Numbered from the stretch's first letter, positions 2,246-61,714 are shown. The stretch: DNA of 64,000 nt from Rhodothermales bacterium (GCA_017643395.1 JAEPNP010000001.1:1739806-1803805), one strand, 5' to 3'. A program made the numbers and translations. The notes: generated from the sequence alone by a model not told the origin.

Positions 2246-2253
2246 TATTTTTG
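2246..2253 (+). promoter_or_regulatory. candidate Bacteroidota-type -7 promoter box (TAnnTTTG) for the precursor gene
   Basis: TATTTTTG at 2246-2253 fits the TAnnTTTG consensus, about 50 nt upstream of ATG 2304. I found no clear -33 TTG partner, so this is weak. Confidence 0.25.
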
Positions 2254-2303
2254 CGACCTTGAATCGCCCCGGCAGCGGTTCGTCAACGCAGCCTACTAGG
2301 AAG

Positions 2304-2510
2304 ATGACTCGGATCTCCCCTTCAGTATTGGACGTGAGCCGCCAGCCTGCTGGGTCTGCGCGACGCAAGGCATACAAGACGCCGGTGCTCACCGATCACG
2401 GCAATCTGGACCAACTCACAAAGGCCGAGTACGGAGGACTGGACCAACTGCTCTTCGGAAGCCTGTTTGCGATGGCCTCGCCCGGTCTGCCGTCGGCACC
2501 GAGTCGCTAG
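2304..2510 (+). CDS. lasso-peptide-type RiPP precursor (68 aa: 40-aa leader + 28-aa core)
   Basis: MTRISPSVLDVSRQPAGSARRKAYKTPVLTDHGNLDQLTK|AEYGGLDQLLFGSLFAMASPGLPSAPSR. Residues Y24..K40 match the lasso leader motif YxxPxLx3Gx5Tx exactly, with Thr at -2. The core starts at Ala1 and has Asp at position 7. The gene abuts the B2/B1 genes. Start chosen at ATG 2304 inside track ORF 2259..2510. Confidence 0.75.
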   Translation: MTRISPSVLDVSRQPAGSARRKAYKTPVLTDHGNLDQLTKAEYGGLDQLLFGSLFAMASPGLPSAPSR

Positions 2511-2879
2511 TCAGTCCGCGACCTCAAACGGCCGGTAGGTCTCCAGATCAGGCAGATCCCCCAACACAACCCGCCCGCCGAGTTCGACCCAGGCGTGTGA
2601 CTCAAGCCTGCCATTGGTGAGGCGACTTCCAAGGCGGAACCCTGAGGGAATGCCTCGCCGCTTGAGCAGGTGATGTAGCGCAGTGGCTCGGGGCAGGCAG
2701 GCTTGCTGGAGTCCAAGTACCTGGGCAACGTGGTGCACACGGGCGGCAAGGGCCAGGGCGCGCCGAATGTCAGCCTCGCTCGCCTCCGGGGCCTCCCGCG
2801 GCGGAGGCACGGCGCGCCACCCAAGTCGGGCCAGAGACAGTTCGGCCAGGACTTCCACGCGCGCCAGCGTCTGCCTCAC
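2511..2879 (-). CDS. lasso peptide biosynthesis B2 protein (transglutaminase-like leader peptidase)
   Basis: 122 aa. QQACLPRATALHHLLKRRGIPSGFRLGSRL...ESHAWVELGGRVV is the typical Cys...His core of PF13471-type B2 proteins. GTG start at 2879 overlaps the PqqD stop by 4 bp. Confidence 0.85.
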   Translation of the reverse strand: MRQTLARVEVLAELSLARLGWRAVPPPREAPEASEADIRRALALAARVHHVAQVLGLQQACLPRATALHHLLKRRGIPSGFRLGSRLTNGRLESHAWVELGGRVVLGDLPDLETYRPFEVAD

Positions 2880-3145
2880 GCGGCGGCCTGCTCCACGAGA
2901 CCGGCCTCCATCAGCTGGCCCAGCAGCGCGTCCAGGTCCGCGCCGGCTCTGGGGGCTTCGACCTCGTACGACTGGACGATGGCAGCTACCAATTCAGGCC
3001 GTGTGCGCGGGCCCGCGGACAAGAGATCCCAGACCAGGCGCCCGGGACCGGTCAACGAGTAGTACTTGCGGTCAGAGCCGAGGATGACCACCGACTCATC
3101 ATCAGGCCGGCTGGCCACCGGGTGTCCGGCGATCTGTACCGTCAT
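2876..3145 (-). CDS. PqqD-family RiPP recognition element (lasso B1)
   Basis: ORF 2876..3262 trimmed to ATG 3145, which forms an ATGA overlap with the upstream gene's stop. YYSLTGPGRLVWDLLSAGPRTRPELVAAIVQSYEVEAPRAGADLDALLGQLMEAGLV is a PqqD/RRE-like winged-helix sequence. Confidence 0.85.
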   Translation of the reverse strand: MTVQIAGHPVASRPDDESVVILGSDRKYYSLTGPGRLVWDLLSAGPRTRPELVAAIVQSYEVEAPRAGADLDALLGQLMEAGLVEQAAA

Positions 3146-4269
3146 GGGCGGGCGCCTCTCTGTTTCGAAAGCTCCTGAAAGGTACGCCACATCAGGCGCA
3201 CAGGCCGAATCACGCTGAAGACGATCGGCGTGTCCGGATGTAACCAGGGCACCGCGGTCCAATCGCGCGCATTGGGCGTGAAGCCCAGTTGGGCCACTCG
3301 TCGCAGCCGGAGCGTCGGCGGCAGCATGCGGAGACGGTGGGCAGTGAGTGCAAGACCTGTGTGAGGCACCTCAAGAGCCTGCCAGGATCGGGCCACCAGG
3401 CCGCGAAGTTGCCGGTAGCGGTGGTCCAGGGGTCTTCGTACTGCGTCCGGAAGTTCTACTCCCAGATCGGCCAGCATGGCCATGCCACACAGGAAAGACG
3501 CCGCCATTCCGGTACGCGATGCCATTTCGAGCCCGGATTCGAGTGCCCGGGTATCGCGGCTCATGAGGGCCAGGTCCGCCAGCCACTTCAGGGCCAGGAA
3601 CGCATGACCGGTTCCGTGCGTGGCTGCGTGCCACAGCGCGTGGGTTGGATTCAGGGCCGGGATCTTGCGGCCTGAAACCTCAAAACAGGTCCGGTCCGCA
3701 AGGAACTGCTCAGCTGGGGCGTCGAGGCCGGGGAAATCGGCCAGGCGACGGTGTATCTCCAGCCGCACCGCACCGCGGATGTGCGACAGGTGCTTCGGTT
3801 GCAGGCGTGGCTGGTGCTCCGTGTCATAGGCCGGATCCAGGTGGAATCCGGCGGCCTCGGCGGCCCGGCAGGCCTCGTCCATGCTCTGGGGCGGCACAAG
3901 CACATCGAGGTCCATGAAGGGTCGCAGCCGAATATCCCCGTGGTATCTGATGGCGGTGCTCGGTCCCTTGAACTGAAGAAATGGGATGTCGGCGGCGTCC
4001 AGGGCCTGCGCCAGATCCAGCAGCGCTCCGCATGTTTCCATGGACCGGACGGCAGCCAGACTCGCCACTGCACCCACCGCAGTCCGGTCAGGATGATCTT
4101 CGGGAAGCCAGCGCTCGACCCAGCCGGCGAGGCCGTGGTGGGCCGCCAGGGCCACAAGCCGCTTGCCGTTCGCGGGCGGATTGGGTGGGTCCGGCAGGGG
4201 ACCCGTGTCGCCGCGCGACAGGGCTGCCACACCGCGAGCCAGGAATTGCAACACCGGATCGCCGGTCAT
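3142..4269 (-). CDS. nucleotidyltransferase family protein (PF14907/NTP_transf_5-like)
   Basis: 375 aa. ...LRPFMDLDVLVPPQSMDEACRAAEAAGFHLD... and ...HLSHIRGAVRLEIHRRL resemble the uncharacterised nucleotidyltransferases that co-occur with HPr-kinase-like genes in lasso clusters. ATGA overlaps at both ends (4266-4269 and 3142-3145). Confidence 0.8.
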   Translation of the reverse strand: MTGDPVLQFLARGVAALSRGDTGPLPDPPNPPANGKRLVALAAHHGLAGWVERWLPEDHPDRTAVGAVASLAAVRSMETCGALLDLAQALDAADIPFLQFKGPSTAIRYHGDIRLRPFMDLDVLVPPQSMDEACRAAEAAGFHLDPAYDTEHQPRLQPKHLSHIRGAVRLEIHRRLADFPGLDAPAEQFLADRTCFEVSGRKIPALNPTHALWHAATHGTGHAFLALKWLADLALMSRDTRALESGLEMASRTGMAASFLCGMAMLADLGVELPDAVRRPLDHRYRQLRGLVARSWQALEVPHTGLALTAHRLRMLPPTLRLRRVAQLGFTPNARDWTAVPWLHPDTPIVFSVIRPVRLMWRTFQELSKQRGARP

Positions 4270-5096
4270 TGGATCATGCGGTCGAGGATCTCGACGACCT
4301 GCGGGAGGTCGGTCAAGGTGGAACCTCGGCGTAGGCGGCCTATCGGGATCGCGCCCGCCAGGCCTCCCACCCGCTGCAGATGGGCGTCAGCAAGCCCTGA
4401 TACGTCCAGCGAGCGAGGCATATGGGCATGGCGAATCAGTTCCAGTAGGGCCTCGGGCCCCGCCAGCGGCTCCAAAACCACCGGGCCGCCGGCCTCCAGT
4501 ACTGCGATTCCTTTCAGTGTTGCGCCAGACGCGCTGGGTGTAACCCTCTCAAGTTGTTTGAGCGGCCCGCCCGCTCGCACCTTCAACCGGCCGGGCCCAG
4601 GCTGCACACTCCAGCCACCCGTGCCCTCCTCCAGGACACACAGGTCATCAGAGAGAAAGGCCCAGCCCGTGGCGAGTAGAGCTCCCGTCAAGGTTGTCTT
4701 GCCCATCCCTGTGGCTCCTAGCAGGCAGATGGCCAGGCCATGGCGGGAGACGACGTTGCCGTGAAGCACGATTCTCCCGGCCCTGCGCAGGAATAGTCCC
4801 ATGAGTTGTCCGGACAGGCGCTCGCCCGCCGCCGCCGGATCGCCGTCGAGCATCACCACGACTTCGTCCGTCGCCATCCGGTACGTCGCTTCACCCGGCC
4901 ACTGGAAGTACCAGAACTCGTCATCAAGCCGAAAGCTCAGCGGGCCGTCACGCTTCATCCTCGGCACATGGAACCGGCCCGCGCGAACCGTCACCTGCCC
5001 CGTCGTGCCGGTCGGGGCCAGAGAAAACGGAAGGGCCAGGTCGCTCTGGACAACGAGGCCGTATGCTGTGTAAGTGGTCAACCGCGGAAGGGGCAC
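4266..5096 (-). CDS. HPr kinase/phosphorylase-like RiPP kinase
   Basis: The C-terminal about 275 aa of ORF 4266..5750 carry YTAYGLVVQSDLALPF...VLHGNVVSRHGLAICLLGATGMGKTTLTGALLATGWAFLSDDLCVL, a P-loop of HprK-like kinases. The start is uncertain: GTG 5096 or TTG 5081. The first ATG (4958) would delete conserved N-terminal strands. The 5097-5750 extension is Arg/Pro/Gly-rich junk overlapped by the PLD gene. Confidence 0.8.
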   Translation of the reverse strand: MPLPRLTTYTAYGLVVQSDLALPFSLAPTGTTGQVTVRAGRFHVPRMKRDGPLSFRLDDEFWYFQWPGEATYRMATDEVVVMLDGDPAAAGERLSGQLMGLFLRRAGRIVLHGNVVSRHGLAICLLGATGMGKTTLTGALLATGWAFLSDDLCVLEEGTGGWSVQPGPGRLKVRAGGPLKQLERVTPSASGATLKGIAVLEAGGPVVLEPLAGPEALLELIRHAHMPRSLDVSGLADAHLQRVGGLAGAIPIGRLRRGSTLTDLPQVVEILDRMIQ

Positions 5097-5197
5097 AACG
5101 GAGGAGTCGTCAAGATAGTCCCGCTCCCGAAGGCGTTCCTTTAACCCGGGCTGAAGCGCTGGCGCGCGTGGCCGGTCAGATCTCGGTGTCCCGGCGG

Positions 5198-6001
5198 TCA
5201 GAACGGACGTGCTCGTCGCCAATACGCGGAGAACACGGTTCGAAGCTCGTAGACGAGAGCCGGGTCGCTGAAGAACGTGGCGACTTCGGACGCTCTGTCG
5301 GCGGATGACGTGGTAAGGTTGGCGCTGCCGTTCATGGCGGTAGTGTCCGTCACCAGAAACTTGGCGTGCAGGTCGGCAAGCGTGCGAAAGGCGACCCCGG
5401 CGTCTTGCAGCGAACGCACGATATGCCCCGTCAGGTTGTCGCTGCGGAACAGAAGTCGGACCCGTACGCCTCGCCGCGACGCGGCCAGAAGGTCGTCGAA
5501 GACCGGCGGTGGAGCCGGGGAAAGGAACGCCACCGCTGCCAATGCCTCGTAGCGCGCGTCCTGCAGCATCCTTCCCATCTGAAGGTGTATGTCGCGGTCC
5601 ACGAAGTGCCGCGCCGCCGATCCACCCGGTGTAGTCGAACGAAAAGCCTGGATCCGCGCATACACGTTTGAGAGGCCGCATCCGAGTGTGGTGGCCACGC
5701 GCGTCTTGTCCTCGGCGCGCCAGGCGAGCCAGAGCCGGTCCGGTGTCCACTTGATGCGTTTTGTCGCCTCCCGACGACCTCGGCCAAGGGGACCTCGCGG
5801 CCGGTCCGGCGATGTGGAATCGCGGGGCGTGTTTCCATCCAGTGCTCGACGCAGCTCAGGCGCCAGTCGATTGAGGGGGTCGGATTCCACAGTATGCCTC
5901 TGATTTGGGCCGGTCAAAGCGGAAGCGAGGGGCGGCATTCCACAACCGGCAGTTTCGAACGGGTTGTCAGGGTATAGAGGCATCGCCCGGACAGTTCGCA
6001 A
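5198..6001 (-). CDS. phospholipase D-like (single HKD motif) domain protein with an N-terminal extension
   Basis: HKD signature LHAKFLVTDTTAMNGSANLT near the C-terminus. One HKD copy only, which is Nuc-like and suggests a dimer. The N-terminal about 130 aa are unassigned and may include a helix-turn-helix (TTLGCGLSNVYARIQAF). Start not resolved (6001, or internal Met). Confidence 0.7.
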   Translation of the reverse strand: MRTVRAMPLYPDNPFETAGCGMPPLASALTGPNQRHTVESDPLNRLAPELRRALDGNTPRDSTSPDRPRGPLGRGRREATKRIKWTPDRLWLAWRAEDKTRVATTLGCGLSNVYARIQAFRSTTPGGSAARHFVDRDIHLQMGRMLQDARYEALAAVAFLSPAPPPVFDDLLAASRRGVRVRLLFRSDNLTGHIVRSLQDAGVAFRTLADLHAKFLVTDTTAMNGSANLTTSSADRASEVATFFSDPALVYELRTVFSAYWRRARPF

Positions 6002-6123: not shown

Positions 6124-7680
6124 CTACCGGGGCGTTCGCATGACCACTCCAGTTGTCACGGCGGCTCCAATGGCGAGCCGGTACAGATAGGTGCCCGGCG
6201 GCAACTCCGATCCCTCGATTCGCGTCGCGTGTTCACCGGGAGGCAATCGCCCCAATTCGGACCGCTGCACCACCCTTCCGATGGCATCGAAGACGATCAG
6301 CCGCACGTCGGCCTCGACTTCAACGGTGAAGTCGATACTGGAGGTCGAGCTGAAGGGATTTGGGTAGGCTGCCGACGCAGACAATTCGAAGGTCGGCGGG
6401 ACCACAACCCGCTCGCGGGCTCGAACGTCGGGGCTGAGCAGGTAGGCCGCGTTGGCCCGAATGCGGTCCGTCTGGTCAAAGAGGGTAGCCAGCGCAGCAC
6501 GCGGGTGTTCGCCGGTAGCCACCGAGACCGCGAATACCAGATCCGCAGACGCGCCGGGCGCTAGGTCGAACGGAGTGGTCGAGGCTATCGAGTTATGGAA
6601 ATACCCCGACAGCGAGGCGCCGGCACCGGGGTTTGCCATGGTCCACCCGGAACCTGTGAGCGGATCCCCATCGAACATGTAGCGGGTCGGTGGCCCCGAC
6701 GTGCCCACTCCGTCCCCCTTGCCCCTGATGGCACTGCCGTTCCGCTGTCGCCCATCCATGACCTGATCGGTGCCAAAGTATCCCCAGTCCAACTCGCGGT
6801 GGACCTCTACGACGAAGCTGTGGAGCGACGATGCGTCAGGTGTCGCCGGGGGCTTGAGTCCGGCATCGGAGGGCCAGAGCGTGGCGGGTAGAAGAGCCAT
6901 GCCTACGGCACGACCCTCCACTTCGGGTGCCGACGAATAGAAATAGGCAAGATCGGAGTCTGGTCGCGAGCCCGACCATACGCGTCGATTCTGTACTTCC
7001 ACCTCCGGAGCAAGACCCAGGCGCACGTTCTCCAGAGGAGAGCCGGAGGTGTTCACGAACCGGTATCGGTATAGTGTGGAATTGCCAACCGCCCCGACCC
7101 CGCGAAACGCGTAAGCGGTTACCTGAATGTCGAGTCCGGGCTGCTGCATGTTGTCGTTGTAGGGCCGATCGTGCATGACCCACCAGACGGTTTCATCGCC
7201 AAAGAGCGTGGGCCGGTCTCCTCCCTCCAGATTGTAGTTGCCGGCCAGGCCGTCTCCATCGCTGACGGGTGCGCCGAGCGCGACCGGCCAGTCGCGGATA
7301 TCCTCGGTGGCAACCCCGGTTCGGTCGAACGCCTCCAGGTCGCTTCTGTCGATTCGCCACACCCTGTTCGCCGGGCCACACTCGCCATCCGGCATGTGTC
7401 GGGGGCCCGGCCGATAGTGCTGGGCGGCGCGCCTGAGCGTGTCACCTCTCACGGCCACGAGTTCTGTCATCAAGCATGAAAGAATGGTCTCCGGCTCGAT
7501 ACTGGACAGTTCCAGACCGCCATTGAGAAACAGAGGGCGCGTAGTGCTGACAGGTGCCCTAAGGCTGTTGACGGAAAGCCTGGCCGAACCCGTAAACGGG
7601 GCGGTGCACTCGTCACTGGTCTGGGCGCGGCTGGGGAGGGCAAGGAGGACCAGGGCAAGGCAGCAAGTGAGGAAGCGCAT
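6124..7680 (-). CDS. secreted protein with T9SS C-terminal sorting domain, function unknown
   Basis: ORF trimmed to ATG 7680, giving the signal peptide MRFLTCCLALVLLALPSRAQ. The C-terminus AYPNPFSSTSSIDFTV...GTYLYRLAIG... is a Por/T9SS CTD. Confidence 0.75.
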   Translation of the reverse strand: MRFLTCCLALVLLALPSRAQTSDECTAPFTGSARLSVNSLRAPVSTTRPLFLNGGLELSSIEPETILSCLMTELVAVRGDTLRRAAQHYRPGPRHMPDGECGPANRVWRIDRSDLEAFDRTGVATEDIRDWPVALGAPVSDGDGLAGNYNLEGGDRPTLFGDETVWWVMHDRPYNDNMQQPGLDIQVTAYAFRGVGAVGNSTLYRYRFVNTSGSPLENVRLGLAPEVEVQNRRVWSGSRPDSDLAYFYSSAPEVEGRAVGMALLPATLWPSDAGLKPPATPDASSLHSFVVEVHRELDWGYFGTDQVMDGRQRNGSAIRGKGDGVGTSGPPTRYMFDGDPLTGSGWTMANPGAGASLSGYFHNSIASTTPFDLAPGASADLVFAVSVATGEHPRAALATLFDQTDRIRANAAYLLSPDVRARERVVVPPTFELSASAAYPNPFSSTSSIDFTVEVEADVRLIVFDAIGRVVQRSELGRLPPGEHATRIEGSELPPGTYLYRLAIGAAVTTGVVMRTPR

Positions 7681-7950
7681 AGTCGTAAGGGAAGGGTGGG
7701 AAAACGGTAGTTGCTCCACCCTGCGCATCTCCCGGTCGATGGGCGAGACAGCGCCTCCACACTCCCCGCCGGTCTCTGGCAGGGTGCCGACGGGGATGAC
7801 AGGGCACTCACGGGTGCCCCGGACGCGGCGCTCGCGGGTCCAATCGTCCGTGGCGATGGGCGGTTGCGCTGGCACGCGCCGGGGTAGGATCAACGGCGAA
7901 ACAGAACCGCCGTCGCAAGCCTACACCTGGTCTCATATGTCCATGACCCG

Positions 7951-8523: not shown

Positions 8524-8570
8524 CGCGTTCCCTGTGCCGTCTGCGCGGTTTCAGGTGCGGTGCCCGGCGC

Positions 8571-8698
8571 GAGGCCGCCGGTGCGGGGCCGCCCGTGCGG
8601 ACGTGAACCCGAGGGGCCGCCCGTGCGGACGTGAACCCGAGGGGCCGCCCGTGCGGACGTGGAACCGCGGGGCCGCCCGTGCGGACGTGGAACCGCGG
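8571..8698. repeat. head-to-tail tandem array of a 28-bp unit (about 4.5 copies)
   Basis: Units GGCCGCCCGTGCGGACGTG(A/G)AACC(C/G)(G/C)(A/G)GG start at 8587, 8615, 8643 and 8671, with a partial unit at 8571. There are no spacers between units. Confidence 0.9.
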
Positions 8699-8825
8699 GG
8701 CCTCTTTCCACTTCGCCCGCGATGCCCGGCGTCTCGATATGTAATAGGGGCCTCGATCCCACAACGCGCTCCTGGCACGGGGGCGTAAGGTGGACTCGGC
8801 GGCGTCTTTTCCACTCACGCTGCAG
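8671..8825 (+). repeat. dispersed hairpin-module element, copy A
   Basis: Contains GTGGAA-N13-TTCCAC (8687-8711), ...CGATATGTAATAGGGGCCTCGATCCCACAAC..., and GTGGAC-N13-TTCCAC (8790-8814). By eye it aligns at about 80 percent identity with copy B at 9910-10065. A C-rich tract follows to about 8930. Confidence 0.75.
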
Positions 8826-8931: not shown

Positions 8932-9747
8932 CTACCTGGCCCCCAACGGGAGTCCACCGGAGTTCTTCCAGACAAGCCGAAGCGAGGAAGTTGTGTCCTC
9001 CAGCTCAAATGCGTCCCGCAACCTGGAAGCAGCCGATGAAACGGTAGGTGCCAGCGAGAATGTCAGTTTCCCCGCGACCACTGTCGGGCATGCCAATCGG
9101 TAAACGTCTCCGTCGCGGAGGCGCAACTCGTGCACGCTTCCCTCTGAGACCAACGCCGTCACAGAGTCTTGCCAGATGACGTTGCGCTGCGCCTCCCGTC
9201 GCAATAGGGTGAAGGCGGCACCCGGCCCGAGTTTGAGTTCGGAATCCGAGTTGATCTGCGTCTCCGAACCTTTCGCATCAAAGCCCGACACAACGAACCA
9301 CGAACCCGTCCAATCTAGCCAGGCGTCGCGCGGAAGTTCAGTTTCGGTCAGCCCGGTCTCCGGGTACAGGCGCCTGTTGGTCCACAGGCCATCCGGAGTG
9401 TGGAACGCGAAGCCGTAGGGCTGCCGGCTGATCGAAGAGAGTATTTTCCCACGCGACGACAGGTACGTCCATCCACTGTCCCGGCCTGCGACAATTGATC
9501 CGGCCGGCCATGTGTAGGTCTGACCGGCCCATAGACGGCCTGCCTGTGAGATGATTTCATGGACCCCAAATGAGTCGTCGCCCCTCCTGTACACGGAAAA
9601 CATGCGGAGGTACTGCCGACACGCCGTGTCCAGGTCTTCGACATATGAGCCAAGCATGTCGTCGGGAAGTGAACTCGACTCCATGTCCAGCTGCGTGGAA
9701 GGCGTGCAGGCCGCCAGGGCGAGCGCAACGGTGGCGCAGAAGGCCAT
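8932..9747 (-). CDS. hypothetical lipoprotein
   Basis: ORF 8932..9879 trimmed to ATG 9747, giving the lipobox MAFCATVALALAAC. No recognisable domain. Flanked on both sides by direct copies of the hairpin-module repeat. Confidence 0.6.
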   Translation of the reverse strand: MAFCATVALALAACTPSTQLDMESSSLPDDMLGSYVEDLDTACRQYLRMFSVYRRGDDSFGVHEIISQAGRLWAGQTYTWPAGSIVAGRDSGWTYLSSRGKILSSISRQPYGFAFHTPDGLWTNRRLYPETGLTETELPRDAWLDWTGSWFVVSGFDAKGSETQINSDSELKLGPGAAFTLLRREAQRNVIWQDSVTALVSEGSVHELRLRDGDVYRLACPTVVAGKLTFSLAPTVSSAASRLRDAFELEDTTSSLRLVWKNSGGLPLGAR

Positions 9748-9909
9748 GCGCCAGGCCTCTCCCACAACGGCTTGCAGGCGCCCTCTCGGGCAAGCTTTGG
9801 AAGGCGGGCGTTCGGCGGACCGGATTCTGCCTTTTTGCGCCTTCGTCGTTTGGGGTTGTTCTCTGAGTCCATCCTTCATTCTCGCATATTACAGTCCCGC
9901 CCGGCGCAA

Positions 9910-10065
9910 GGCCGCCCGTGCGTAGGTGGAACCGTGGGGCCTTTTTCCACGTGGCGTCATGGCGCCCGGCCCCTCGATGTGTAATAGGGGCCTCTATCCC
10001 ACAACGTGCCCCTCGGTACGGGCCTTGGAGTGGACTCGGCGGCGATTTTTCCACTTAAGCCGCCC
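9910..10065 (+). repeat. dispersed hairpin-module element, copy B
   Basis: GGCCGCCCGTGCGTAGGTGGAACCGTGGGGCCTTTTTCCAC...CGATGTGTAATAGGGGCCTCTATCCCACAAC...GTGGACTCGGCGGCGATTTTTCCAC. Same order and orientation as copy A. Confidence 0.75.
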
Positions 10066-37312: not shown

Positions 37313-39439
37313 ATGAGCTCCCGTCTCATTGCACTTTGCTTCTGCTTCCTTGTAACCCTTCCACTCCAAGCCGACCCCACCCTGCGGGTTCTGAATCCTA
37401 CCCGCGCCTGGCAAAATTACCAGGGCACTATTGAAGAGGCGCTGGTCTCCATGAGACCACGAGGCGCCTACATGGAGGTCGGTCTCTACCTCACATTCTC
37501 CGCCCGCTCATCCGGGCTGCCCGCCAACACCCAACTCGAAGTCGAGTACAAGTTCAGCCTGCCCGAAGGCTCGATCGTGACCGACTCCTGGTTGTGGGTA
37601 GGTGACGACATCATGCAGGCGCTGATCATCGATCAGTGGACCGCCGCCTCCATCTACGAGGGCATTGTCAACCGAAGGCGGGACCCCTCCATCCTGTACA
37701 AACGAGGACCGGACAACTACGAACTGAGGGTGTACCCCCTCCTTCTCAACGACACCAGAAAGGTCAAGCTGACGTATCTGGTGCCCATCGATGTCGTCGA
37801 TACCCAGGCATCGGTCCCCCTTCCACTGGAGTTACTGGAGGACTCGAGGCATCCGGTCAAGAATCTCGATGTCCTGGCCTGGAGTTATGACGAGACCGCA
37901 TCGCCCGGCATCCTGGAAGGCGCAGGCCCGGGATTTGAACTGAAGAATGATCCGCGGCTGGGATTCCATTACCGTCAGACCCTGAACCTGACCGCGCTTC
38001 CGCACCGAGCACGGCTCAACCTGACTGTGCCCATTCCGTTTGACGACGGCCTCTATCTCAGCTCCTACCAGGGGAAGGAGAACAACTACTACCAGCTGAT
38101 TCTTCAGCCTTCCAGCGTGCTGGGTGCGACCACCTCACGCAAGGTCGCGGTCCTGATCGACAACGATGCCGGCAATGCGTCGATTGACCGCGCCCAATTG
38201 ATGCAGCAGGTGCGGGCCTCGCTGAAGGCCACGCTGAGTCATACCGACTTCTTCAACCTGTTCGTGTCGCAGCTGGATGTCAAGCAGTACGCGGCGGGGT
38301 GGCTTCCCGCGGACGATGCCACCATCGATGACGCGTTCGACGAGATCGGCGTCCCGGCCACCTACAGCAGCCTTCCGGCATTGCTCAAGCGGGGCTTCGA
38401 GTTCATCCAGCGGCAGGGAAATGAAGGCACCGTGCTCCTCATCTCGGCTTCCGATCAGTTTGGCACCAACCAGGTGGCCAACCAGCTGCTTCGTGACCTG
38501 GGCGCCAATTCCTTTGGCGGCAACGTGCAGGTCATCGACTACCAGGACCGCAGCGTGGACCAGTTTCGCATCAACGGTGTCTGGTATCGCGGAAACGGCT
38601 ATCTGTACACGAATCTCTCCCGTGCGACTGGCGGGTCCTATGTAACCCTGAGTGACGGATCGAGTCTGACCGCAGTCCTGCCGCAGGCGATCAGGGCCAA
38701 CGGTCGCACGCTGACGGCGGTGGATCTCTACACCAGTCTATCGTCGGGATTTACCTACGGCCGCACCACGTCCCTGTCCTCCGACGGTCTGCATTCTGCC
38801 AGCGAGCCCATCGTACAGATAGGCAAGTACGTGGGCGCACCACCCTTTTCGATCACCTTCTCCGGGATCAACCGGCAGGACGCGTTTTCTGTCACCCGTG
38901 ATGTGGCGGCAGACGCTGTGGTTCAGGCGGACAGCAGCTCCGAGAAGGCGTGGGTGGGCAACTACATCAGGGAGCTGGAGCGTTTGCCGGAAAGCAATCC
39001 GCTGATCAATGAGATCCTGAATCTGTCCCTGGAGCATCGGGTGTTGAGCCAGTACAGCGCCTTCCTGGCGCTGGAGCCGAGCGATACCACACGTGCCTGC
39101 ACGAGCTGTGTGGACGAGTCGGCGGCTACGAATGTCGACGACGATCCGGAATTGCCGCAGGCGGACAGCCTGCTCCAGGTATACCCGAATCCCTTTTCCT
39201 CGGTGACGAACATCGAGGTCTCCATCCCGGCGTCCTTGGCGGGCGATGCGGTCTCGCTGACCGTATTCGACGTGCTGGGCCGGGCCGTGCGCCAACTTCC
39301 ACTGCGCCGCTCGGGGGGGCGCCATACGCTGCAGTGGGACGGCTCGGGCGACGATGGGCGGCGCCTTGCCGCGGGCGTGTACATGGTGGTGTTGTCAACA
39401 CCCCATGGTACACGCTCGCTCAAGGCGGTGCTTTACTGA
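37313..39439 (+). CDS. secreted VIT-like / vWA-like protein with T9SS C-terminal sorting domain
   Basis: ATG 37313 gives the signal MSSRLIALCFCFLVTLPLQA. The N-terminal region (EVEYKFSLPEGSIVTDSWLWVGDDIM...YELRVYPLL..KVKLTYLVP) resembles a VIT domain. The middle (KVAVLIDNDAGNAS...) is weakly vWA-like. The C-terminus LLQVYPNPFSSVTNIEVSIP...GVYMVVLSTPHG is a T9SS CTD. Confidence 0.7.
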   Translation: MSSRLIALCFCFLVTLPLQADPTLRVLNPTRAWQNYQGTIEEALVSMRPRGAYMEVGLYLTFSARSSGLPANTQLEVEYKFSLPEGSIVTDSWLWVGDDIMQALIIDQWTAASIYEGIVNRRRDPSILYKRGPDNYELRVYPLLLNDTRKVKLTYLVPIDVVDTQASVPLPLELLEDSRHPVKNLDVLAWSYDETASPGILEGAGPGFELKNDPRLGFHYRQTLNLTALPHRARLNLTVPIPFDDGLYLSSYQGKENNYYQLILQPSSVLGATTSRKVAVLIDNDAGNASIDRAQLMQQVRASLKATLSHTDFFNLFVSQLDVKQYAAGWLPADDATIDDAFDEIGVPATYSSLPALLKRGFEFIQRQGNEGTVLLISASDQFGTNQVANQLLRDLGANSFGGNVQVIDYQDRSVDQFRINGVWYRGNGYLYTNLSRATGGSYVTLSDGSSLTAVLPQAIRANGRTLTAVDLYTSLSSGFTYGRTTSLSSDGLHSASEPIVQIGKYVGAPPFSITFSGINRQDAFSVTRDVAADAVVQADSSSEKAWVGNYIRELERLPESNPLINEILNLSLEHRVLSQYSAFLALEPSDTTRACTSCVDESAATNVDDDPELPQADSLLQVYPNPFSSVTNIEVSIPASLAGDAVSLTVFDVLGRAVRQLPLRRSGGRHTLQWDGSGDDGRRLAAGVYMVVLSTPHGTRSLKAVLY

Positions 39440-39520: not shown

Positions 39521-41467
39521 TCAGTTGGAGTAAGTGACCACCAGCAGGGGTGCCTTGGAGCTGCTTCCGTTGTAGGACTCGGCGGTCCGTTCGCCTTTGC
39601 CACTGATCATGAACGCCATGTCGTTCCCGGCATTCCAGCCGGAGCGGTTCACGATCTCCTGCACGACGGCTGCGATGTTTGGCGTGCGCTGGTCCATGCC
39701 TGCTGCGCCGACACTCGTCCAGGCCGGGAAGCTCCATGTGACGTGGGATGCGGTCTGTGCTCGATTGCTGATGTCGTAGTCAGAGGATCCGTAGGAGGAC
39801 GCATCGTCCGTGTTTTCGCCGGCCAGTCGGAGATGGTTGTCTCCGCTGTTCTTCTCGTCCACCGTGAACTGCACGTAGGCCTCGGTGATCGTGGCGCCCT
39901 TCGGGATGTCCAGTCCGCGGAAGCGGATTCCCACAATCTGGTCCTTGCTGCCGTCGAATGACAGCTCGAGGTCGGAGCTGCTACGGTACATGTCCCCGTT
40001 GGAGACGCGCTCCTCGGCGTCATCGTTCTTGTCTGAGATGCGTACGGAGATCGTATGGGTTTGAGCTGCCCGCGTGCCCAGATCCGTGCCTGCGATCGTT
40101 TGTGCGCCGGGGGCAGGGCCTTCGCCGACCCAGAGCGAATTGTTGAGGGTCCCCTTTGGAACACCGACGTGGATGCGTCCGGACTTGCTGTGCAGCCACC
40201 GGAGAACCTCTTTCGATGACGCCTGCGGGTGATCATGGAGATACAGGGCGACTGCTCCGGTCACGTGAGCGGCCGACATCGAGGTCCCGGTAAGTGTCGC
40301 GGTCTGGTGGGCAATCGGCGAAAGGGAGACCACCTCGTCACCCGGGGCCAGGATATCGATGACTTTGCCGTGGTTGGAGAACCACGAGAACGCGCCCAGC
40401 ATATCGTGCGAGCCGACTGTAATGGCCGACTTGGCCTTGGCGGGGGTGACCTTGGAGGCATCCACGCCCTGGTTTCCGGCGGCCACCACGAAGATGACTC
40501 CCAACTTGGCGGCGCGATCGATGGCAATGTCGAGTGCGGTGTCCTCGGTGGTGCCGACGACCTCCCCCAGCGACATGTTCACAACCATCGGCGTGTTCGG
40601 CTGGGCGGCTTTGCGTTTGGCAATCTCCTCGACTGCAGCGACCACGACGGAGACGTCGGTAGTGCCCTCATCATTGAGGACCTTGAGATTGTGAATCCGC
40701 GAACCCGGGGCGATGCCCACCAGGCCGTCGGAATCGTCGATAGCACCGATGATCCCGGCGATGTGGGTGCCGTGACCATCATAGTCGGCCGGGTCGTCCA
40801 TTCCCGGACGGAAATCGATCGACTCGACAAGTGCCAGGTCGTCATCCGGATCCGAACTGTTGGCTTTCGCGACGCCTGTGTCGAGCACGAACACATCGAC
40901 CGGAACGGAGCCCGATCCGTTGCCGGACTGGGTGGAGCTGGTTGCCCCGCCTACCATGGCCACACTCCATGGCAGATGCTGCGAGGTTGCCGTCGAGCTG
41001 CCACTGCTGACGGGAAACTTCATGCCGAAGTCCGGCTCGAACCAGGAGATTTCCGGGTCGTCCGCCATGGTCCGGAGCAGCTCGATAAAGTCGCTCTGTC
41101 CATTCTTCAGCCTTGCGGTGACCGCGTACCCGTCGAAGACTTCTTCGTATTCGAACCGCTCAAGGATCTCGAAGCGTTCGAGCAGCCGGTACCGCTCCAC
41201 CACGCGGAACCGCTCGACAATTCCGTAGCGCTCCACCAGCTCCTGCGCATTGATCGCGAAGATGAGGTTGAGCTCCTCGCCGTCCTTGCCTGCGGTCTCT
41301 CCGCGGGCTTTTTCAAGGAGGTGAGCGTGCCTGAACTTGTCAGGGTCCAGTTCCTGGACTTCACGCGGCGTCTCTGGGCGCTCCTCGACGGCGCTGCCGG
41401 TAAAGCTTTCGGAGCAGCCGCCAGCCAGGACTGCGAAGCCGAGAAACAGGAAAAATCTGCGATACAT
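39521..41467 (-). CDS. S8-family (subtilisin-like) serine peptidase, lipoprotein, with C-terminal extra domain
   Basis: ATG 41467 gives MYRRFFLFLGFAVLAGGC. The catalytic triad context is VFVLDTGV (Asp), HGTHIAGIIGA (His) and GTSMSAAHVTGAVAL (Ser). The pro-region holds a hexapeptide ERF/ERY repeat. Confidence 0.9.
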   Translation of the reverse strand: MYRRFFLFLGFAVLAGGCSESFTGSAVEERPETPREVQELDPDKFRHAHLLEKARGETAGKDGEELNLIFAINAQELVERYGIVERFRVVERYRLLERFEILERFEYEEVFDGYAVTARLKNGQSDFIELLRTMADDPEISWFEPDFGMKFPVSSGSSTATSQHLPWSVAMVGGATSSTQSGNGSGSVPVDVFVLDTGVAKANSSDPDDDLALVESIDFRPGMDDPADYDGHGTHIAGIIGAIDDSDGLVGIAPGSRIHNLKVLNDEGTTDVSVVVAAVEEIAKRKAAQPNTPMVVNMSLGEVVGTTEDTALDIAIDRAAKLGVIFVVAAGNQGVDASKVTPAKAKSAITVGSHDMLGAFSWFSNHGKVIDILAPGDEVVSLSPIAHQTATLTGTSMSAAHVTGAVALYLHDHPQASSKEVLRWLHSKSGRIHVGVPKGTLNNSLWVGEGPAPGAQTIAGTDLGTRAAQTHTISVRISDKNDDAEERVSNGDMYRSSSDLELSFDGSKDQIVGIRFRGLDIPKGATITEAYVQFTVDEKNSGDNHLRLAGENTDDASSYGSSDYDISNRAQTASHVTWSFPAWTSVGAAGMDQRTPNIAAVVQEIVNRSGWNAGNDMAFMISGKGERTAESYNGSSSKAPLLVVTYSN

Positions 41468-41574
41468 GGAGTAGGGAGGATTGAGAGTGTGGCGCAGGGA
41501 CAAGCATCCCCACGGTCCCCGTATCGGCAGTTGGCGTGCGGACTTAAGCCCGAAGCAGAGAAAGTTGGCGCTTT

Positions 41575-41740
41575 TGGGTGGCGGGGTTGTTCGGGGCGGC
41601 GCGGCGGCTGTTGGGGGTGCGAGGGGGGCTGCGGGGGGCTGCGGTTGGCGCGGTTGTGGGCGCGTCGGTTGGCGCGGGGACGGCCCTTGGTCGGCCGGGA
41701 CGGCCGGGCCCCCGTGGCGGGGTTGCGGTCGGGCGTAATG
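41575..41740. repeat. G-rich low-complexity tract (reverse-complement counterpart of the C-rich tract at 10066-10205)
   Basis: GGTGGCGGGGTTGTTCGGGGCGGCGCGGCGGCTGTTGGGGGTGCGAGGGGGGCTGCGGGGGGCTGCGG... has many runs of three or more G on the + strand, directly adjoining inverted copies of the hairpin-module element. Confidence 0.7.
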
Positions 41741-41742
41741 GT

Positions 41743-41930
41743 GCGGATGTGGAATCGCGGCCCCCGATTACACTTACGGCTCCCGCCGCGGGGCGCCCGA
41801 GTGGAATAGGGCCCCGCAGTCGACTTCGGTCCGGGGCCGCGGGGCCTCTACGTGGAAAGCGGCCCCGCTATTTCACTTCGGCCGCTGCTGCGGCGGCCGC
41901 TCCGGTTGGCGCAGGCGCCCAAGATGCCGG
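41743..41930 (-). repeat. dispersed hairpin-module element, copy C (inverted relative to copies A/B)
   Basis: GCGGATGTGGAATCGCGGCCCCCGATTACACTTACGG...GTGGAATAGGGCCCCGCAGTCGAC...GTGGAAAGCGGCCCCGCTATTTCAC. The reverse complements of copies A/B share the ...GGCCCCTATTACA... and GTGGAAA..GGCCCC..TTCCAC modules. Confidence 0.8.
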
Positions 41931-51963: not shown

Positions 51964-54273
51964 ATGCGCAGTGCGGCCTGGATCATACTCCTGTGTGTGA
52001 CCTCCATGCCGCTCCGTGCGCAGGTCCTGCTGAACGGGGTGGTTTCCGGAAGCGACGATGGCCTGCCGCTGCCCGCGGCGACCGTGCAGGTGGAGGGTCA
52101 GGCGCTCGGAACTGTGACCAGCCGGGACGGGCGGTTCACCCTGGCCGTAGCCACGCTTCCGGTAACGCTCCTGGTACGGCACATCGGGTACTCCTCGCGG
52201 CGCATCGACGTCGTGGCTGCAGGCCCATTGCGCATCCAACTGGACCCCAGTCCGGTGGAACTGGGAGAATTGGTGGTCTCCGGCGAAGATCCGGCGCTGC
52301 CCATCATGCGCCACGTGCTGGCCCGCAAGCAGGCCTGGCGGGACTCGATTTCCACGTCCTATGCGGAAGTGTACTCGCGCTTTCAGCTGTACCGGGAGTT
52401 CGACCTCGTCGAGGTGGAGGAGACGATCGGTGCGCACTGGTGGCACGCCGGCCTGGGCGTACGGCAGATCACCCGCGCCCGGCGGGTGCAGCCCGACCGG
52501 CCCGAGCAGTTTCTGTATGCCGCGCCGACGCATGTGCCGAACCTGTATGACGACCAGGTCCCCATTGAAGGCACGCGCTTCCTGGGTCCCCTCCACCCGG
52601 ATGCCCTCGATAATTATCGCTTTCGCCTGACCGGCCAGCGGGCGCAAGACGGACGGCTGATTCACGACATCGCCTACACGCCATTTGGACTGACGGCGGC
52701 CGGGTTTGTCGGCACGCTGGCCGTGGAGGACTCAACCTTTGATGTGCTCCTGATCACGGCGAGGCCCACCATTGACCGCATGGGTCCGCCGCCGGTGCTG
52801 GACCGGTCGGTGAGGATGGAGCAACACTTTGCTCGACGGGGTATCGCCATGGTGCCCGTCTACTTTGAGGCCAACGGGGCCGTGCGATTCGGCAGGGCCG
52901 GGGTACGCTATCCACGAGCCCGGTATCGACAGGTATCCGGGTTGTCCCTGCACGTCACTGGCGTACAACTGCCGGATACGCTGCGCACCTCTGGACGCAG
53001 CCTCCGGGATGACCCCGGTATACAGGGTGGCACGTGGCTGTTCTCCTGGAATCCGGGCATGATTCCGTTGACCGATGAGGAGCGTCGCGAGATGGACGGC
53101 ATGCGATCGAACCGTGGTTTAGGCGCCTACTTTCGACCGGAGGGACTCCTGGCCCAGTACGCGGCCATTCCGATTGCTGAGCGCAGGGAAGAGCCGCCCG
53201 AAATCGGCGTTCCGGATCCCGTCTGGTTCAAGCCCTGGGTATGGTTCAACCGGGTCGACGGATGGCACATTGGGCTCAGGCCGGAGGTGCCGCTCACCCG
53301 CAGCGTCACATTGCGCCCGGGACTGGCCTTCGCCGAAGCGCCTGACGAAGTACGCTGGACGGCTGCTGCCCACTATGACGAAGGTCCCTGGTCGGGCTCA
53401 TTCGGCGCAGAGCGGCTCACCGGAATCGTGGGGGTAGGCAAGCACCCGGATCGTTTTCTGACGGGTCTGGCGGCGTACGCCGGCTGGGACGACTATTTCG
53501 ACTATTACGATCGGGCGCGGCGCTGGGCCACGCTGGGATTCAGTCGCCGCATCTCATGGGAAGTGACCGCATCGCACGAGGAACACCGGTCGGTGCCCAA
53601 GCAGGACGACTACGAAGGCTGGCTCAAACGCAACGTGCAGCGTGCGAATCCGCCAATTGACGAAGGCACCCTGGCCGCGCTCTCGGCGCGACTTGGGCTG
53701 GGCGAGCCGGACCGAGACGCACGGCGCCTGACCGGTCATCTGGATCTGCAGGGCGAGGTCGCGAGCGAGGGCATGCTGGGCTCTGACTTCGGCTTCAGTC
53801 GGTGGCAGGGAGCGGCTTCGCTTCAGGTGCCGACGCTGATGCGCCGGAGGGCCGTGCCGGCGATGCTGCGGCTTGACGTAGTCGCGGGCGGAGGGTCAGC
53901 AGGCGTGCCCGTTCAGCGCCGGGGGGTGCTGGATGTGGCTACTGGTCCCGTTGCTGGAGAGGTGGCGTTTCGAAGTCGCCATGACGCTCGACTCGTCGCC
54001 CGCCGCTGGGCCGCGCTGTTCTGGCAGCACGACTTCGGGTCCGCGATCGCCGAACGCATGGGCTTCGGTGAGACCAACCTCGGCATTGTGGTCTTTGGAG
54101 CGCACGGAACGGCGTGGCACGGCAGCACCACGCGTCGGGATGAAATCGGAATCGCGTGGTCGAAGCCGTTCAATCTACCGTTCCGCATAAACCTGGCGAC
54201 CGACCTGCGGGAATGGAGTCCCCTGGTGACCCTGGAGTACTACGGCGTTGCCCGGCGGCTGCTGGGTCGCTAG
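51964..54273 (+). CDS. CarboxypepD_reg + DUF5686 family protein (outer-membrane-type)
   Basis: Signal MRSAAWIILLCVTSMPLRAQ. GVVSGSDDGLPLPAATVQVEG...TVTSRDGRFTL is a carboxypeptidase-regulatory-like domain. The rest fits the length and character of DUF5686 proteins. Confidence 0.75.
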   Translation: MRSAAWIILLCVTSMPLRAQVLLNGVVSGSDDGLPLPAATVQVEGQALGTVTSRDGRFTLAVATLPVTLLVRHIGYSSRRIDVVAAGPLRIQLDPSPVELGELVVSGEDPALPIMRHVLARKQAWRDSISTSYAEVYSRFQLYREFDLVEVEETIGAHWWHAGLGVRQITRARRVQPDRPEQFLYAAPTHVPNLYDDQVPIEGTRFLGPLHPDALDNYRFRLTGQRAQDGRLIHDIAYTPFGLTAAGFVGTLAVEDSTFDVLLITARPTIDRMGPPPVLDRSVRMEQHFARRGIAMVPVYFEANGAVRFGRAGVRYPRARYRQVSGLSLHVTGVQLPDTLRTSGRSLRDDPGIQGGTWLFSWNPGMIPLTDEERREMDGMRSNRGLGAYFRPEGLLAQYAAIPIAERREEPPEIGVPDPVWFKPWVWFNRVDGWHIGLRPEVPLTRSVTLRPGLAFAEAPDEVRWTAAAHYDEGPWSGSFGAERLTGIVGVGKHPDRFLTGLAAYAGWDDYFDYYDRARRWATLGFSRRISWEVTASHEEHRSVPKQDDYEGWLKRNVQRANPPIDEGTLAALSARLGLGEPDRDARRLTGHLDLQGEVASEGMLGSDFGFSRWQGAASLQVPTLMRRRAVPAMLRLDVVAGGGSAGVPVQRRGVLDVATGPVAGEVAFRSRHDARLVARRWAALFWQHDFGSAIAERMGFGETNLGIVVFGAHGTAWHGSTTRRDEIGIAWSKPFNLPFRINLATDLREWSPLVTLEYYGVARRLLGR

Positions 54274-56576: not shown

Positions 56577-56745
56577 GGTCGGCTGGGGTGGTGGACTGCC
56601 AAGATAACAGAACCTGAAATCGTCGGAACGCCCCGAGCGGTGGCCGGGGAGCGCCGTGCTTCGAGTGCATGAAGCCCATCGCCCGGACCCCCCTTGCCGG
56701 ATTCCTGCGCGGCGCGGTTAATTGGCGGCCCACCCGAGTGCTGCC

Positions 56746-61165: not shown

Positions 61166-61714
61166 ATGAAACGTCTGCTGCTCGGATCGCTCCTTTCTGC
61201 GATCGCCCTCATGATTTGGGGATTCGTGTTCTGGGCCGGAGGCGGCGCGGCGATGGGCTTTTCAAGTCTGGACGTCGAGGCCGAGCAGGCAGTAATGTCG
61301 GCGCTGGCGGAGCACATTCCGGAGACCGGTGCCTATGTGCTGCCGGACCCGGAGACGACGAGCCTGGAGGAATGGACGGCACGCCATCTGGCCGGTCCGC
61401 TCGCATTCCTGCATGTGACACGGGCGGGCACCGATCCGATGTCGCCACGCGTATACGTGCTGGGCTTCCTGCATATGTTCATCGTGTCGTTCCTGATCGG
61501 GCTGGGCATGATCCGGGTGCTGTCCCCATCGACCTCCTACATCCGGCGCATCGGGTTCGGCGGCGCGGTGGGCGTTGTGGTTGCCTTCTGGTCCAATCTC
61601 AGCGACCCGATCTGGTTCTATGAGCCGTGGCCGTACCACCTGACGACCTCGCTCTACGACCTCGTTTCGTTCCTGATCATCGGCGCCGTGCTCGGCAAGA
61701 TCGTGCGTCCGTGA
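61166..61714 (+). CDS. hypothetical membrane protein
   Basis: ATG 61166 (MKRLLLGSLLSAIALMIWGFVFW...). Four hydrophobic segments. Its stop overlaps the next gene's GTG (GTGA). Confidence 0.6.
   Translation: MKRLLLGSLLSAIALMIWGFVFWAGGGAAMGFSSLDVEAEQAVMSALAEHIPETGAYVLPDPETTSLEEWTARHLAGPLAFLHVTRAGTDPMSPRVYVLGFLHMFIVSFLIGLGMIRVLSPSTSYIRRIGFGGAVGVVVAFWSNLSDPIWFYEPWPYHLTTSLYDLVSFLIIGAVLGKIVRP

Follow-up and report, generated by a model that had tools for sequence, protein, structure and literature searches.

Among described systems, the closest to the cassette considered here is the LPP family of Bacillota, encoded by lppA-K-B-S-D-N clusters (Popov et al., Nat Commun 2026, PMC13381572). These clusters, which comprise a kinase, a PF14907 transferase and an RRE but no cyclase, give linear polyphosphorylated peptides upon heterologous expression, and the authors see in these products a linear counterpart to phosphorylated lasso peptides (PMC13381572). 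LppN was inactive in the published experiments, and LPPs have been reported as restricted to Bacillota (PMC13381572). The kinase-type phosphorylated lasso clusters (paeninodin, pseudomycoidin and Sphingobium types) share with the cassette the split B1 and B2 proteins, an HprK-like kinase, often a PF14907 transferase, and the same leader logic. However, they also contain an Asn-synthetase-like cyclase and an ABC exporter, both of which are absent here, and their kinases act on the C-terminal Ser. Canonical split-B lasso clusters (A, B1, B2, C and usually D) resemble the cassette in precursor architecture, RRE and B2 peptidase, but the cyclase C that defines them was found neither at the cassette locus nor at ten related loci.

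The cassette occupies positions 2304-5096 of a 64-kb stretch of DNA from a Rhodothermales bacterium, called the window below, and its precursor gene is convergent with four minus-strand enzyme genes (Table 1). The stop codons of the precursor and B2 genes abut, and an AGGAAG Shine-Dalgarno-like motif is located directly upstream of the precursor ORF. The original prediction had named these genes as precursor, HprK-like, PF14907, PqqD/B1 and B2, with 4-bp overlaps at 4266-4269, 3142-3145 and 2876-2879; profile searches, annotation and structure models uphold every assignment, and all three overlaps are found as given. All elements are found at their predicted coordinates or no more than a few bases away, the proposed start at 2246 being just DNA upstream of the ORF at 2304. 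The neighbours named at the same time (EEP, DUF2071, PLDc_2 and a T9SS-tail protein) are also present. The PLD-like, EEP and DUF2071 genes were rejected as cassette members because they are not conserved alongside it.

Table 1. Genes of the cassette, numbered from the first letter of the window
Feature	Position	Strand	Details
Precursor gene A	2304..2510	+	ORF of 68 aa; NCBI locus tag JJ896_07115
B2 leader peptidase	2511..2879	-	122 aa; PF13471 E=7e-21
B1 / RiPP recognition element	2876..3145	-	89 aa, as called on the source contig; PF05402 E=3.8e-13
PF14907 (NTP_transf_5) nucleotidyltransferase-fold enzyme N	3142..4269	-	375 aa; PF14907 E=1.9e-33
HprK-like P-loop kinase K	4266..5096	-	276 aa (ENA call), 271 aa (NCBI, locus tag JJ896_07135)

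The cassette represents a family in Rhodothermales. Synteny in relatives, proposed earlier as a check, shows that the arrangement recurs in ten loci, always without a cyclase in the DNA examined: all five genes are present in L003, L005, L006, L007, L008, L009, L011 and L013, and partial copies in L014 and L015. Since the same five genes occur in ten other loci, their arrangement is far beyond chance. These loci have unrelated flanks and show three full gene orders (K-N-B1-B2, N-B1-B2-K and B1-B2-A-K-N). The set persists in about ten loci whose proteins are 35-55% identical, and a comparison of L003 with L005 gives dN/dS values of 0.15-0.24 for the five genes (K, N, B1, B2 and A), similar to those of neighbouring genes. 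These ratios and the intact catalytic motifs indicate purifying selection on a functional cassette. An alternative is decay: a kinase-type lasso cluster, having lost cyclase and exporter, would survive as a remnant without a useful product, and C and D, both core components in the ancestral type of cluster, are indeed absent. However, the five ORFs are intact, the four enzyme genes keep their translationally coupled 4-bp overlaps, the catalytic residues are conserved, and both the retention of the set in divergent loci and the dN/dS values speak against decay, which makes such a remnant extremely improbable and close to refuted. In most relatives the precursor adjoins a large T9SS-secreted protein with a conserved, unannotated 390-aa module, a proximity that hints at a common function.

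The leader of the window precursor, ending ...YKTPVLTDHGNLDQLTK, is an exact match to the lasso motif YxxPxLx3Gx5Tx and a weak match to the NCBIfam model lasso_cyano (E=1.8e-4); the predicted 28-aa core is AEYGGLDQLLFGSLFAMASPGLPSAPSR. Each related cassette comes with a precursor homologue, and the cores gathered comprise 25 distinct sequences. Thr is found at leader position -2 and A, S or T at core position 1, Asp7 is present in 24 of the 25 cores and Glu2 is near-invariant in the same way, while position 3 is Tyr in 24 cores and Phe in the other. Ser/Thr19, which forms part of an invariant [ST]-P motif, is the sole hydroxyl residue common to all cores. The C-terminal residue is always Arg (25/25), with S/T at the penultimate position in just 18/25. 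The window precursor has the full set of lasso precursor features (YxxPxL leader, Thr at -2, small residue 1, Asp/Glu at 7-9). In the intact cassette of L009, represented by a single read-assembly contig, the core carries Asn7 and lacks an acidic residue at 7-9, so that a canonical lasso ring is not possible there. The precursor of L006 lies 4.7 kb away from its cassette, and the window genome has a second, orphan precursor on another contig.

Searches with the PF13471, PF05402 and PF14907 profiles, also suggested earlier, upheld the homology of B2, B1 and N. B2 scores 68.8 bits with NF033537 (lasso_biosyn_B2, cut-off 33) and is a transglutaminase-like cysteine protease, whose Cys (xCLxxA), His (HAW) and PDL motifs are shared by the eight aligned family members. 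B1 reaches 50 bits with PF05402 (cut-off 23.4) and 34-37 bits with the lasso PqqD chaperone models, under their strict cut-offs. The cassette accordingly encodes both the PqqD-like RRE and the Cys/His B2 peptidase of a lasso cluster.

The kinase carries a precomputed PF27840 annotation (ScmC, HprK-related family). An HprK C-terminal domain profile had also been suggested as a check, but Pfam Hpr_kinase_C gave only E=6e-4; its identity is upheld by PF27840, by the fold, and by a partial TIGR04352 match (E=4e-12) confined to the P-loop region. The HPr-rel-A system, which pairs a distant HprK homologue (TIGR04352 kinase A) with a PqqD-like chaperone (TIGR04353), is similar in this respect and both of its models match partially. 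Membership was nevertheless rejected, the scores being 45.7 bits against a curated cut-off of 200 for TIGR04352 and 21.2 against 35 for TIGR04353. The Walker A (GATGMGKTT), LSDDL and HAHMPRSL motifs are conserved, and the AF2 model (pLDDT 91) has PEPCK and L. casei HprK/P as its best Foldseek PDB matches (probability 1.00), which points to an HprK/P-PEPCK-fold P-loop kinase. Its clade is small and distinct, with about 13 representative clusters above 200 bits compared with a family plateau of 124-150 bits. The PF14907 enzyme scores 116.5 bits (gathering threshold 31.2) and conserves the pol-beta-type metal-binding motif KGP[ST]...RPxxDLD (here KGPST...DLDVLV); the best PDB matches of its model (pLDDT 75) are ANT(2'')-Ia, MenT, LnuA and FKRP.

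Both enzymes use ATP or NTP and have intact active-site motifs. Together with the near-invariant Asp7 and Glu2, the small and separate kinase clade and a cyclase nowhere in sight, this would suit a ring made by the cassette itself: the kinase (through an acyl-phosphate) or the nucleotidyltransferase (through an acyl-adenylate) would activate the Asp7 carboxylate for attack by the new N-terminus, replacing the Asn-synthetase-type cyclase. However, N and K have distant relatives (25-28% identity) in canonical clusters that hold both enzymes and a normal cyclase, and on this ground the two are tailoring enzymes, not stand-ins for the cyclase. Characterised relatives of the two place phosphate on Ser hydroxyls and decorate it, and we know of no HprK-fold or ANT-fold enzyme that activates a peptide carboxylate for amide formation. 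Such a ring is very unlikely, and just as improbable is the fuller version in which the cassette's own ATP/NTP enzymes close the ring at Asp7 and the product acts together with the secreted proteins bearing the 390-aa module. If this is true, lasso or branched-cyclic peptides could be reached without an Asn-synthetase-type cyclase.

The absence of an Asn-synthetase-like ORF from the window, as originally claimed, is borne out by all scans: no SGGxDS motif is found in its six frames, PF00733 has no match among its large ORFs, and a cyclase HMM run on all six-frame ORFs gives nothing better than E=3. No cyclase is listed in the source-contig gene table, which continues past the window start for about 7 kb. 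The same HMM detects none in the ten related loci (up to 10 kb per side, less on short contigs) nor in L012, but it and the motif scan do score the related canonical kinase-type lasso clusters L004 and L010, used as controls. Likewise, neither the window cassette nor its relatives contain or adjoin an exporter gene (ABC_membrane/ABC_tran), the nearest being a permease of the MacB/FtsX type that lies about 3 kb past the window start and about 5.5 kb from the precursor.

A cyclase encoded elsewhere in the genome might still close an Ala1-Asp7 macrolactam after B1/B2 cleavage, with K and N as tailoring enzymes, so that the product would be a genuine lasso peptide from a split cluster. Leader and core obey every lasso rule, B2 exceeds the lasso cut-off, one homologous precursor bears the NCBI name 'lasso RiPP family leader peptide-containing protein', and some dispersal is tolerated, as the detached precursor of L006 and the orphan one of the window genome illustrate. 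Moreover, the cyclase search in assembly GCA_017642665.1 covered about 71 kb of a 1.4-2.1-Mb contig and 20 kb of a second. By contrast, in the ten related loci the genes A, K, N, B1 and B2 (or as many of them as short contigs allow) stay together despite varied flanks and gene orders, and a cyclase never occurs within the scanned flanks. In canonical relatives the cyclase is adjacent, and one always apart from its B proteins would be unprecedented. The Asn7 core of L009 and the lack of the usual ABC exporter also speak against a split cluster, which is considered rather unlikely. Between the two outcomes first envisaged, a split cluster and a linear phosphorylated or nucleotidylated peptide, the evidence leans to the latter, and the former keeps a minor share of the probability.

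Somewhat favoured is an explanation in which lasso-type B1/B2 proteins would release an LPP-like 28-aa peptide, linear and bearing phosphate as well as a further decoration. As part of this explanation, A, K, N, B1 and B2 would probably constitute a self-contained RiPP unit, derived from kinase-type lasso clusters and functioning without macrolactam cyclase or dedicated exporter. With the LPP clusters the cassette shares an HprK-like kinase, a PF14907-type NTP transferase, a discrete lasso-like RRE, a YxxP leader and the lack of a macrolactam cyclase. The LPP leader peptidase, however, is a signal peptidase I of the archaeal type (the SipW-like LppS), whereas here it is a lasso B2; the Pfam annotations of the cassette and of its called neighbours, in the window and in related loci, include no signal-peptidase family. 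LPP clusters encode an MsbA-like exporter, which has no equivalent here, and only the YxxP...H part of the LPP leader (YxxPxVLxHQxIxFETxxS) is common to the cassette precursors. LPP cores are variable and phosphorylated on Ser3, whereas the cassette cores are highly conserved and have Tyr/Phe at position 3, with Ser/Thr19 as the only invariant hydroxyl. The original prediction's analogy with paeninodin, in which the kinase acts on a C-terminal Ser, does not fit either, given the invariant C-terminal Arg.

In the linear-peptide explanation, the B1 recognition protein would bind the 68-aa precursor through the YxxP leader motif, to judge from its family. Lasso kinases act on linear precursors, and the HprK-like kinase would similarly act on the still-linear peptide by phosphorylating a core hydroxyl; Ser/Thr19 is the best candidate site, being the one hydroxyl residue that all cores share. 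The PF14907 enzyme may then add a group to the phosphate. Its only characterised homologue type, PsmN, puts a hexose onto phosphoserine, and the group could be a hexose, a nucleotide or a phospho-alcohol, this step being the least certain. Both the phosphorylation site and this transfer chemistry are accordingly proposed by analogy. Finally, the B2 cysteine protease would cut after the residue following Thr(-2), at LT[KQR]|[AST]EYGG, to release a linear decorated peptide of 28-31 residues with a C-terminal Arg. The Asn7 cassette of L009 would be a point for a linear product. Against it stand the fully lasso-compatible core, in which Asp7 needs another explanation if there is no ring, and the lack of an exporter in the cassette.

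Such a product would be a functional analogue of the Bacillota LPPs, made with a lasso peptidase in place of the signal-peptidase-like one by a member of the Rhodothermales. The locus had initially been proposed as an undescribed use of lasso machinery. Cyclase-less linear LPPs were published in May 2026 (PMC13381572), so this novelty does not hold in general, but a lasso B2 in that role appears undescribed. Lasso mining rules that demand a cyclase would presumably overlook the cassette. If the linear explanation is true, the LPP-type peptide class, first described in 2026, would be extended to a new phylum and to a different trimming enzyme.

The cassette pairs a plus-strand precursor gene (A) with four convergent minus-strand genes, which encode an HprK-like kinase (K), a PF14907 nucleotidyltransferase (N), a PqqD-like RRE (B1) and a lasso-type peptidase (B2). 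The three junctions between the minus-strand genes are 4-bp overlaps, and both this arrangement and the convergent 68-aa precursor are present between 2304 and 5096, as the original prediction had described. The stop codon of the precursor (TAG, 2508-2510) immediately adjoins that of B2 (2511-2513), so that the convergent genes are unspaced and a terminator would have no room between them. The proposed family assignments of all four enzymes hold, on Pfam and NCBIfam matches and on models of the kinase and transferase. The sequence similarity of the kinase to HPr kinase is weak, and a PDB sequence search with it returns P-loop matches only; its AlphaFold model, for which ten family members were used (pLDDT 91), has PEP carboxykinase and HprK/P as top PDB matches, with probability 1.00. 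The transferase finds no match in a PDB sequence search, and its model (pLDDT 75) is similar to ANT(2'')-Ia, MenT toxins, LnuA and FKRP, the same structural kinship that PsmN, from the pseudomycoidin cluster, is reported to have. The GC3 of the cassette (0.70-0.81, against 0.66-0.83 in neighboring genes) and the unremarkable composition of the window lend no support to a recent horizontal acquisition.

Features of the cassette, of the surrounding window and of related loci
Feature	Location	Strand	Basis or remark
Precursor (A), 68 aa	window 2304-2510	+	ORF with AGGAAG motif upstream
B2, transglutaminase-like, 122 aa	window 2511-2879	-	PF13471 E=7e-21; NCBIfam "lasso peptide biosynthesis B2 protein" 68.8 bits (cut-off 33)
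B1, PqqD-like, 89 aa	window 2876-3145	-	PF05402 E=3.8e-13
PF14907 nucleotidyltransferase (N), 375 aa	window 3142-4269	-	E=1.9e-33
P-loop protein (K), 276 aa	window 4266-5096	-	Pfam HPr kinase E=6e-4; TIGR04352 partial, 4e-12; PF27840 ScmC (precomputed annotation)
Secreted proteins	window 6124-7893, 37097-39439, 39521-41767, 54270-56717, 61624-63432		T9SS tails, FG-GAP, LVIVD repeats, subtilase
28-bp unit GGGGCCGCCCGTGCGGACGTGAACCCGA	window 8557-8724		~five tandem copies, then ~150-nt element
~150-nt element	window 8666-8823, 9905-10063		79-84% identity
315-aa ORF	window 8932-9879	-	
Module-bearing T9SS protein	L003 4718-8563	-	
Module-bearing T9SS protein	L005 5532-9377	-	
Module-bearing T9SS protein	L006 7732-10938	+	
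Module-bearing T9SS protein	L009 4684-8286	+	
Module-bearing T9SS protein	L011 103-3762	+	
Module-bearing T9SS protein	L013 294-3191	+	
Module-bearing T9SS protein	L014 3-2090	+	
Lipoprotein-like ORF, ~110 aa	L003 8560-8898	-	
Lipoprotein-like ORF, ~110 aa	L005 9374-9712	-	
Lipoprotein-like ORF, ~110 aa	L007 12739-13068	+	
Orphan precursor (JJ896_09635)	L012 10001-10189		GCA_017642665.1, contig JAEPQR010000002.1; core AEYGGLDRAVFGTLFAIASPGLPGAPSR
Tandem precursor-like ORFs	L014 2139-2327, about 2700-2912	+	second uncalled as gene on that strand

The Asn-synthetase-like macrolactam cyclase of lasso clusters, of which the original prediction had seen no sign in the window, is indeed absent from it. 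No SGGxDS PP-loop occurs in any of the six frames across the 64 kb, Pfam detects no Asn_synthase in 30 window ORFs (cassette, neighbors and 20 further large ORFs), and an HMM built from the two lasso cyclases recovered in this analysis finds nothing better than E=3 among all six-frame ORFs; these scans rule out an overlooked cyclase inside the window. One lying just past the window start is likewise ruled out for the next ~7 kb, where the gene table of the source contig lists DUF6624, a MacB/FtsX permease, PadR, an AAA_14 protein and TetR.

Searches with the transferase, the kinase alignment and the precursor alignment recover ten further loci, among them eight full ones (L003, L005-L009, L011 and L013, with L011 in a Rhodothermales MAG) and two on short contigs (L014 and L015). 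Custom HMMs find all five components in each full-length locus, and the missing cyclase is a family trait of the cassette across the DNA around these ten loci. The synteny survey thus bears out a recurrent five-gene unit with unlike flanks: gene order is permuted in at least three ways (K-N-B1-B2 with a divergent precursor upstream of K in L003 and L005, N-B1-B2-K in L009, B1-B2-A-K-N in L013), yet the five genes stay together, while their surroundings range from DnaK/RecA housekeeping genes (L008) to P450/DinB (L003) and RND efflux (L011). Two ordinary kinase-type lasso clusters, L004 and L010, encode both Asn_synthase and an ABC exporter and serve as positive controls for cyclase detection. 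Among the loci compared first, they alone match the cyclase HMM and the PP-loop motif; the later-added loci give no match to the HMM. Their transferase and kinase share 28% and 25% identity with those of the cassette and stand beside a cyclase, which marks K and N as tailoring enzymes that normally coexist with it. A more exotic reading, with K or N itself as the activator of Asp7 of the core for ring closure, is for this reason very unlikely.

The kinase clade is small, with ~13 representative clusters above 200 bits when 1.84 billion representative proteins are searched exhaustively with a profile; below a gap, at ~124-150 bits, lies the broad HprK-like family, which has 11,536 representatives at E<=1e-10. 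The cassette occurs in only one GTDB species-representative genome, and since that scan gave a single extra locus the family is rare. A metagenome scan with the kinase motifs gave no match, and one with the precursor DNA pattern gave one 1-kb contig.

Selection maintains the cassette. Between L003 and L005, K, N, B1, B2 and A have dN/dS values of 0.15-0.24, against 0.08-0.18 for flanking genes. Also conserved are the Cys and His motifs of B2, the G-P-[ST]...DxD motif of the transferase and, in the kinase, Walker A, LSDDL and HAHMPRSL. These data essentially exclude the view that the cassette is a decaying remnant.

A homologous precursor goes with every related cassette, and a profile search of a protein collection yields 21 homologs, one of which NCBI calls "lasso RiPP family leader peptide-containing protein." The leader of the window precursor contains YKTPVLTDHGNLDQLTK, which fits exactly the pattern for lasso recognition and cleavage, YxxPxLx3Gx5Tx, and the predicted core of this precursor is AEYGGLDQLLFGSLFAMASPGLPSAPSR. 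Across 25 distinct cores there is no variation at Glu2, Leu6, Phe15, Pro20 or the C-terminal Arg, and position 19 holds Ser in 24 and Thr in one; position 13 is variable, as is the penultimate residue. Asp7 occurs in 24 of the 25, and the core obeys all lasso rules; both observations favor a serious rival reading, in which the cyclase is encoded elsewhere in the genome. Such a cyclase would need to be separated from its B proteins at each of ~10 loci, and we consider this reading rather improbable. The exceptional core, in L009, carries Asn7 and lacks any acidic residue at positions 7-9, in an otherwise intact cassette; it comes from a single assembly and argues that a ring may not be essential. 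The window's genome also holds an orphan second precursor on another contig (L012), within 10 kb of which K, N, B1, B2 and cyclase are all absent. It adjoins YceI/DUF3667 genes; in L008 and L009 the syntenic position, with this same flank, carries the full cassette. In L014 two tandem precursor-like ORFs lie between the module-bearing T9SS protein and the kinase.

In kinase-type lasso clusters the C-terminal Ser of the still-linear precursor is phosphorylated, and PsmN, a PF14907 enzyme, is needed to add one or two hexoses to that phosphate. The original prediction drew on paeninodin-style Ser phosphorylation, an analogy that fails at the target residue, because the C-terminus of the cassette cores is always Arg. 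A closer parallel is found in the linear polyphosphorylated peptides (LPPs) described in May 2026 and stated to be restricted to Bacillota, whose cyclase-less clusters encode an HprK-like kinase, an NTP transferase that is uncharacterized, a discrete RRE, an MsbA-like exporter and a SipW-like signal peptidase (Popov et al., 2026; PMC13381572). On expression, the clusters yield a linear peptide that has lost its leader and bears 1-4 phosphates on Ser3, the transferase being inactive in the expression host used (Popov et al., 2026). By contrast, the cassette has a lasso B2 peptidase in place of the SipW-like enzyme, and its cores lack Ser3. The earlier reading is supported overall but needs correction, since cyclase-less kinase/transferase/RRE systems are already published as LPPs; the literature search found no report of one built on a lasso B2 peptidase. 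According to the RRE-Finder paper, about half of ~8,000 "discrete lasso RRE" matches have no co-occurring peptidase and cyclase.

Most economically, the cassette can be read as an LPP-like pathway in which the leader-removal module of lasso clusters was retained. B1 would bind the YxxP leader, K would phosphorylate a core hydroxyl on the linear peptide, N would elaborate the phosphate, and B2 would cut after LT[KQR]. Ser/Thr19, within an invariant [ST]-P motif, is the predicted candidate phosphosite because it is the sole universally conserved core hydroxyl. We regard this pathway as somewhat probable and no more, because Asp7 is almost perfectly conserved, the core meets all lasso rules and the cyclase search in this genome covered the window, ~7 kb past its start and the surroundings of the orphan precursor.

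The predicted EEP, DUF2071, PLDc_2 and T9SS-tailed neighbors are present in the window by Pfam, but they are rejected as parts of the cassette because none recurs in related loci; of the 583-aa T9SS protein, only the ~70-aa sorting tail is shared. Secreted proteins abound in the window, so that proximity to one T9SS cargo gene is uninformative on its own, and several other peptidases (M1, M14, S9) occur as well. The two ~150-nt elements, the second 1.24 kb downstream of the first, bracket the 315-aa ORF. In seven related loci a large T9SS-tailed protein directly adjoins the precursor gene or cassette, with one small lipoprotein gene intervening in L003 and L005. Its N-terminal part varies (Peptidase_S8, FG-GAP repeats, beta-helix), and a common ~390-aa module always lies just before the sorting tail. 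Neither Pfam nor a PDB sequence search gives a match to this module, which is absent from L008, L012 and the 64-kb window, including the several other T9SS proteins of the window. The lipoprotein-like ORF, which has no Pfam match, is conserved between the precursor and an S8 protease in three loci.

Lasso B1 and B2 have so far been treated as lasso-peptide markers, and the mining tools that rest on this view demand a cyclase, so that rules of this kind would pass over cassettes of this type. Should the product be linear, the leader-removal module of lasso clusters has been put to use in another class of peptide, and linear phosphopeptide chemistry is confined neither to Bacillota nor to the SipW-like peptidase; the compact five-gene system, with its highly conserved 28-aa core, would also suit the working out of the widespread, uncharacterized PF14907 enzymes. 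If a distant cyclase exists, the lasso pathway would be consistently split, which is also unusual. The repeated pairing with a conserved module of type IX-secreted proteins offers a first handle on biological function.
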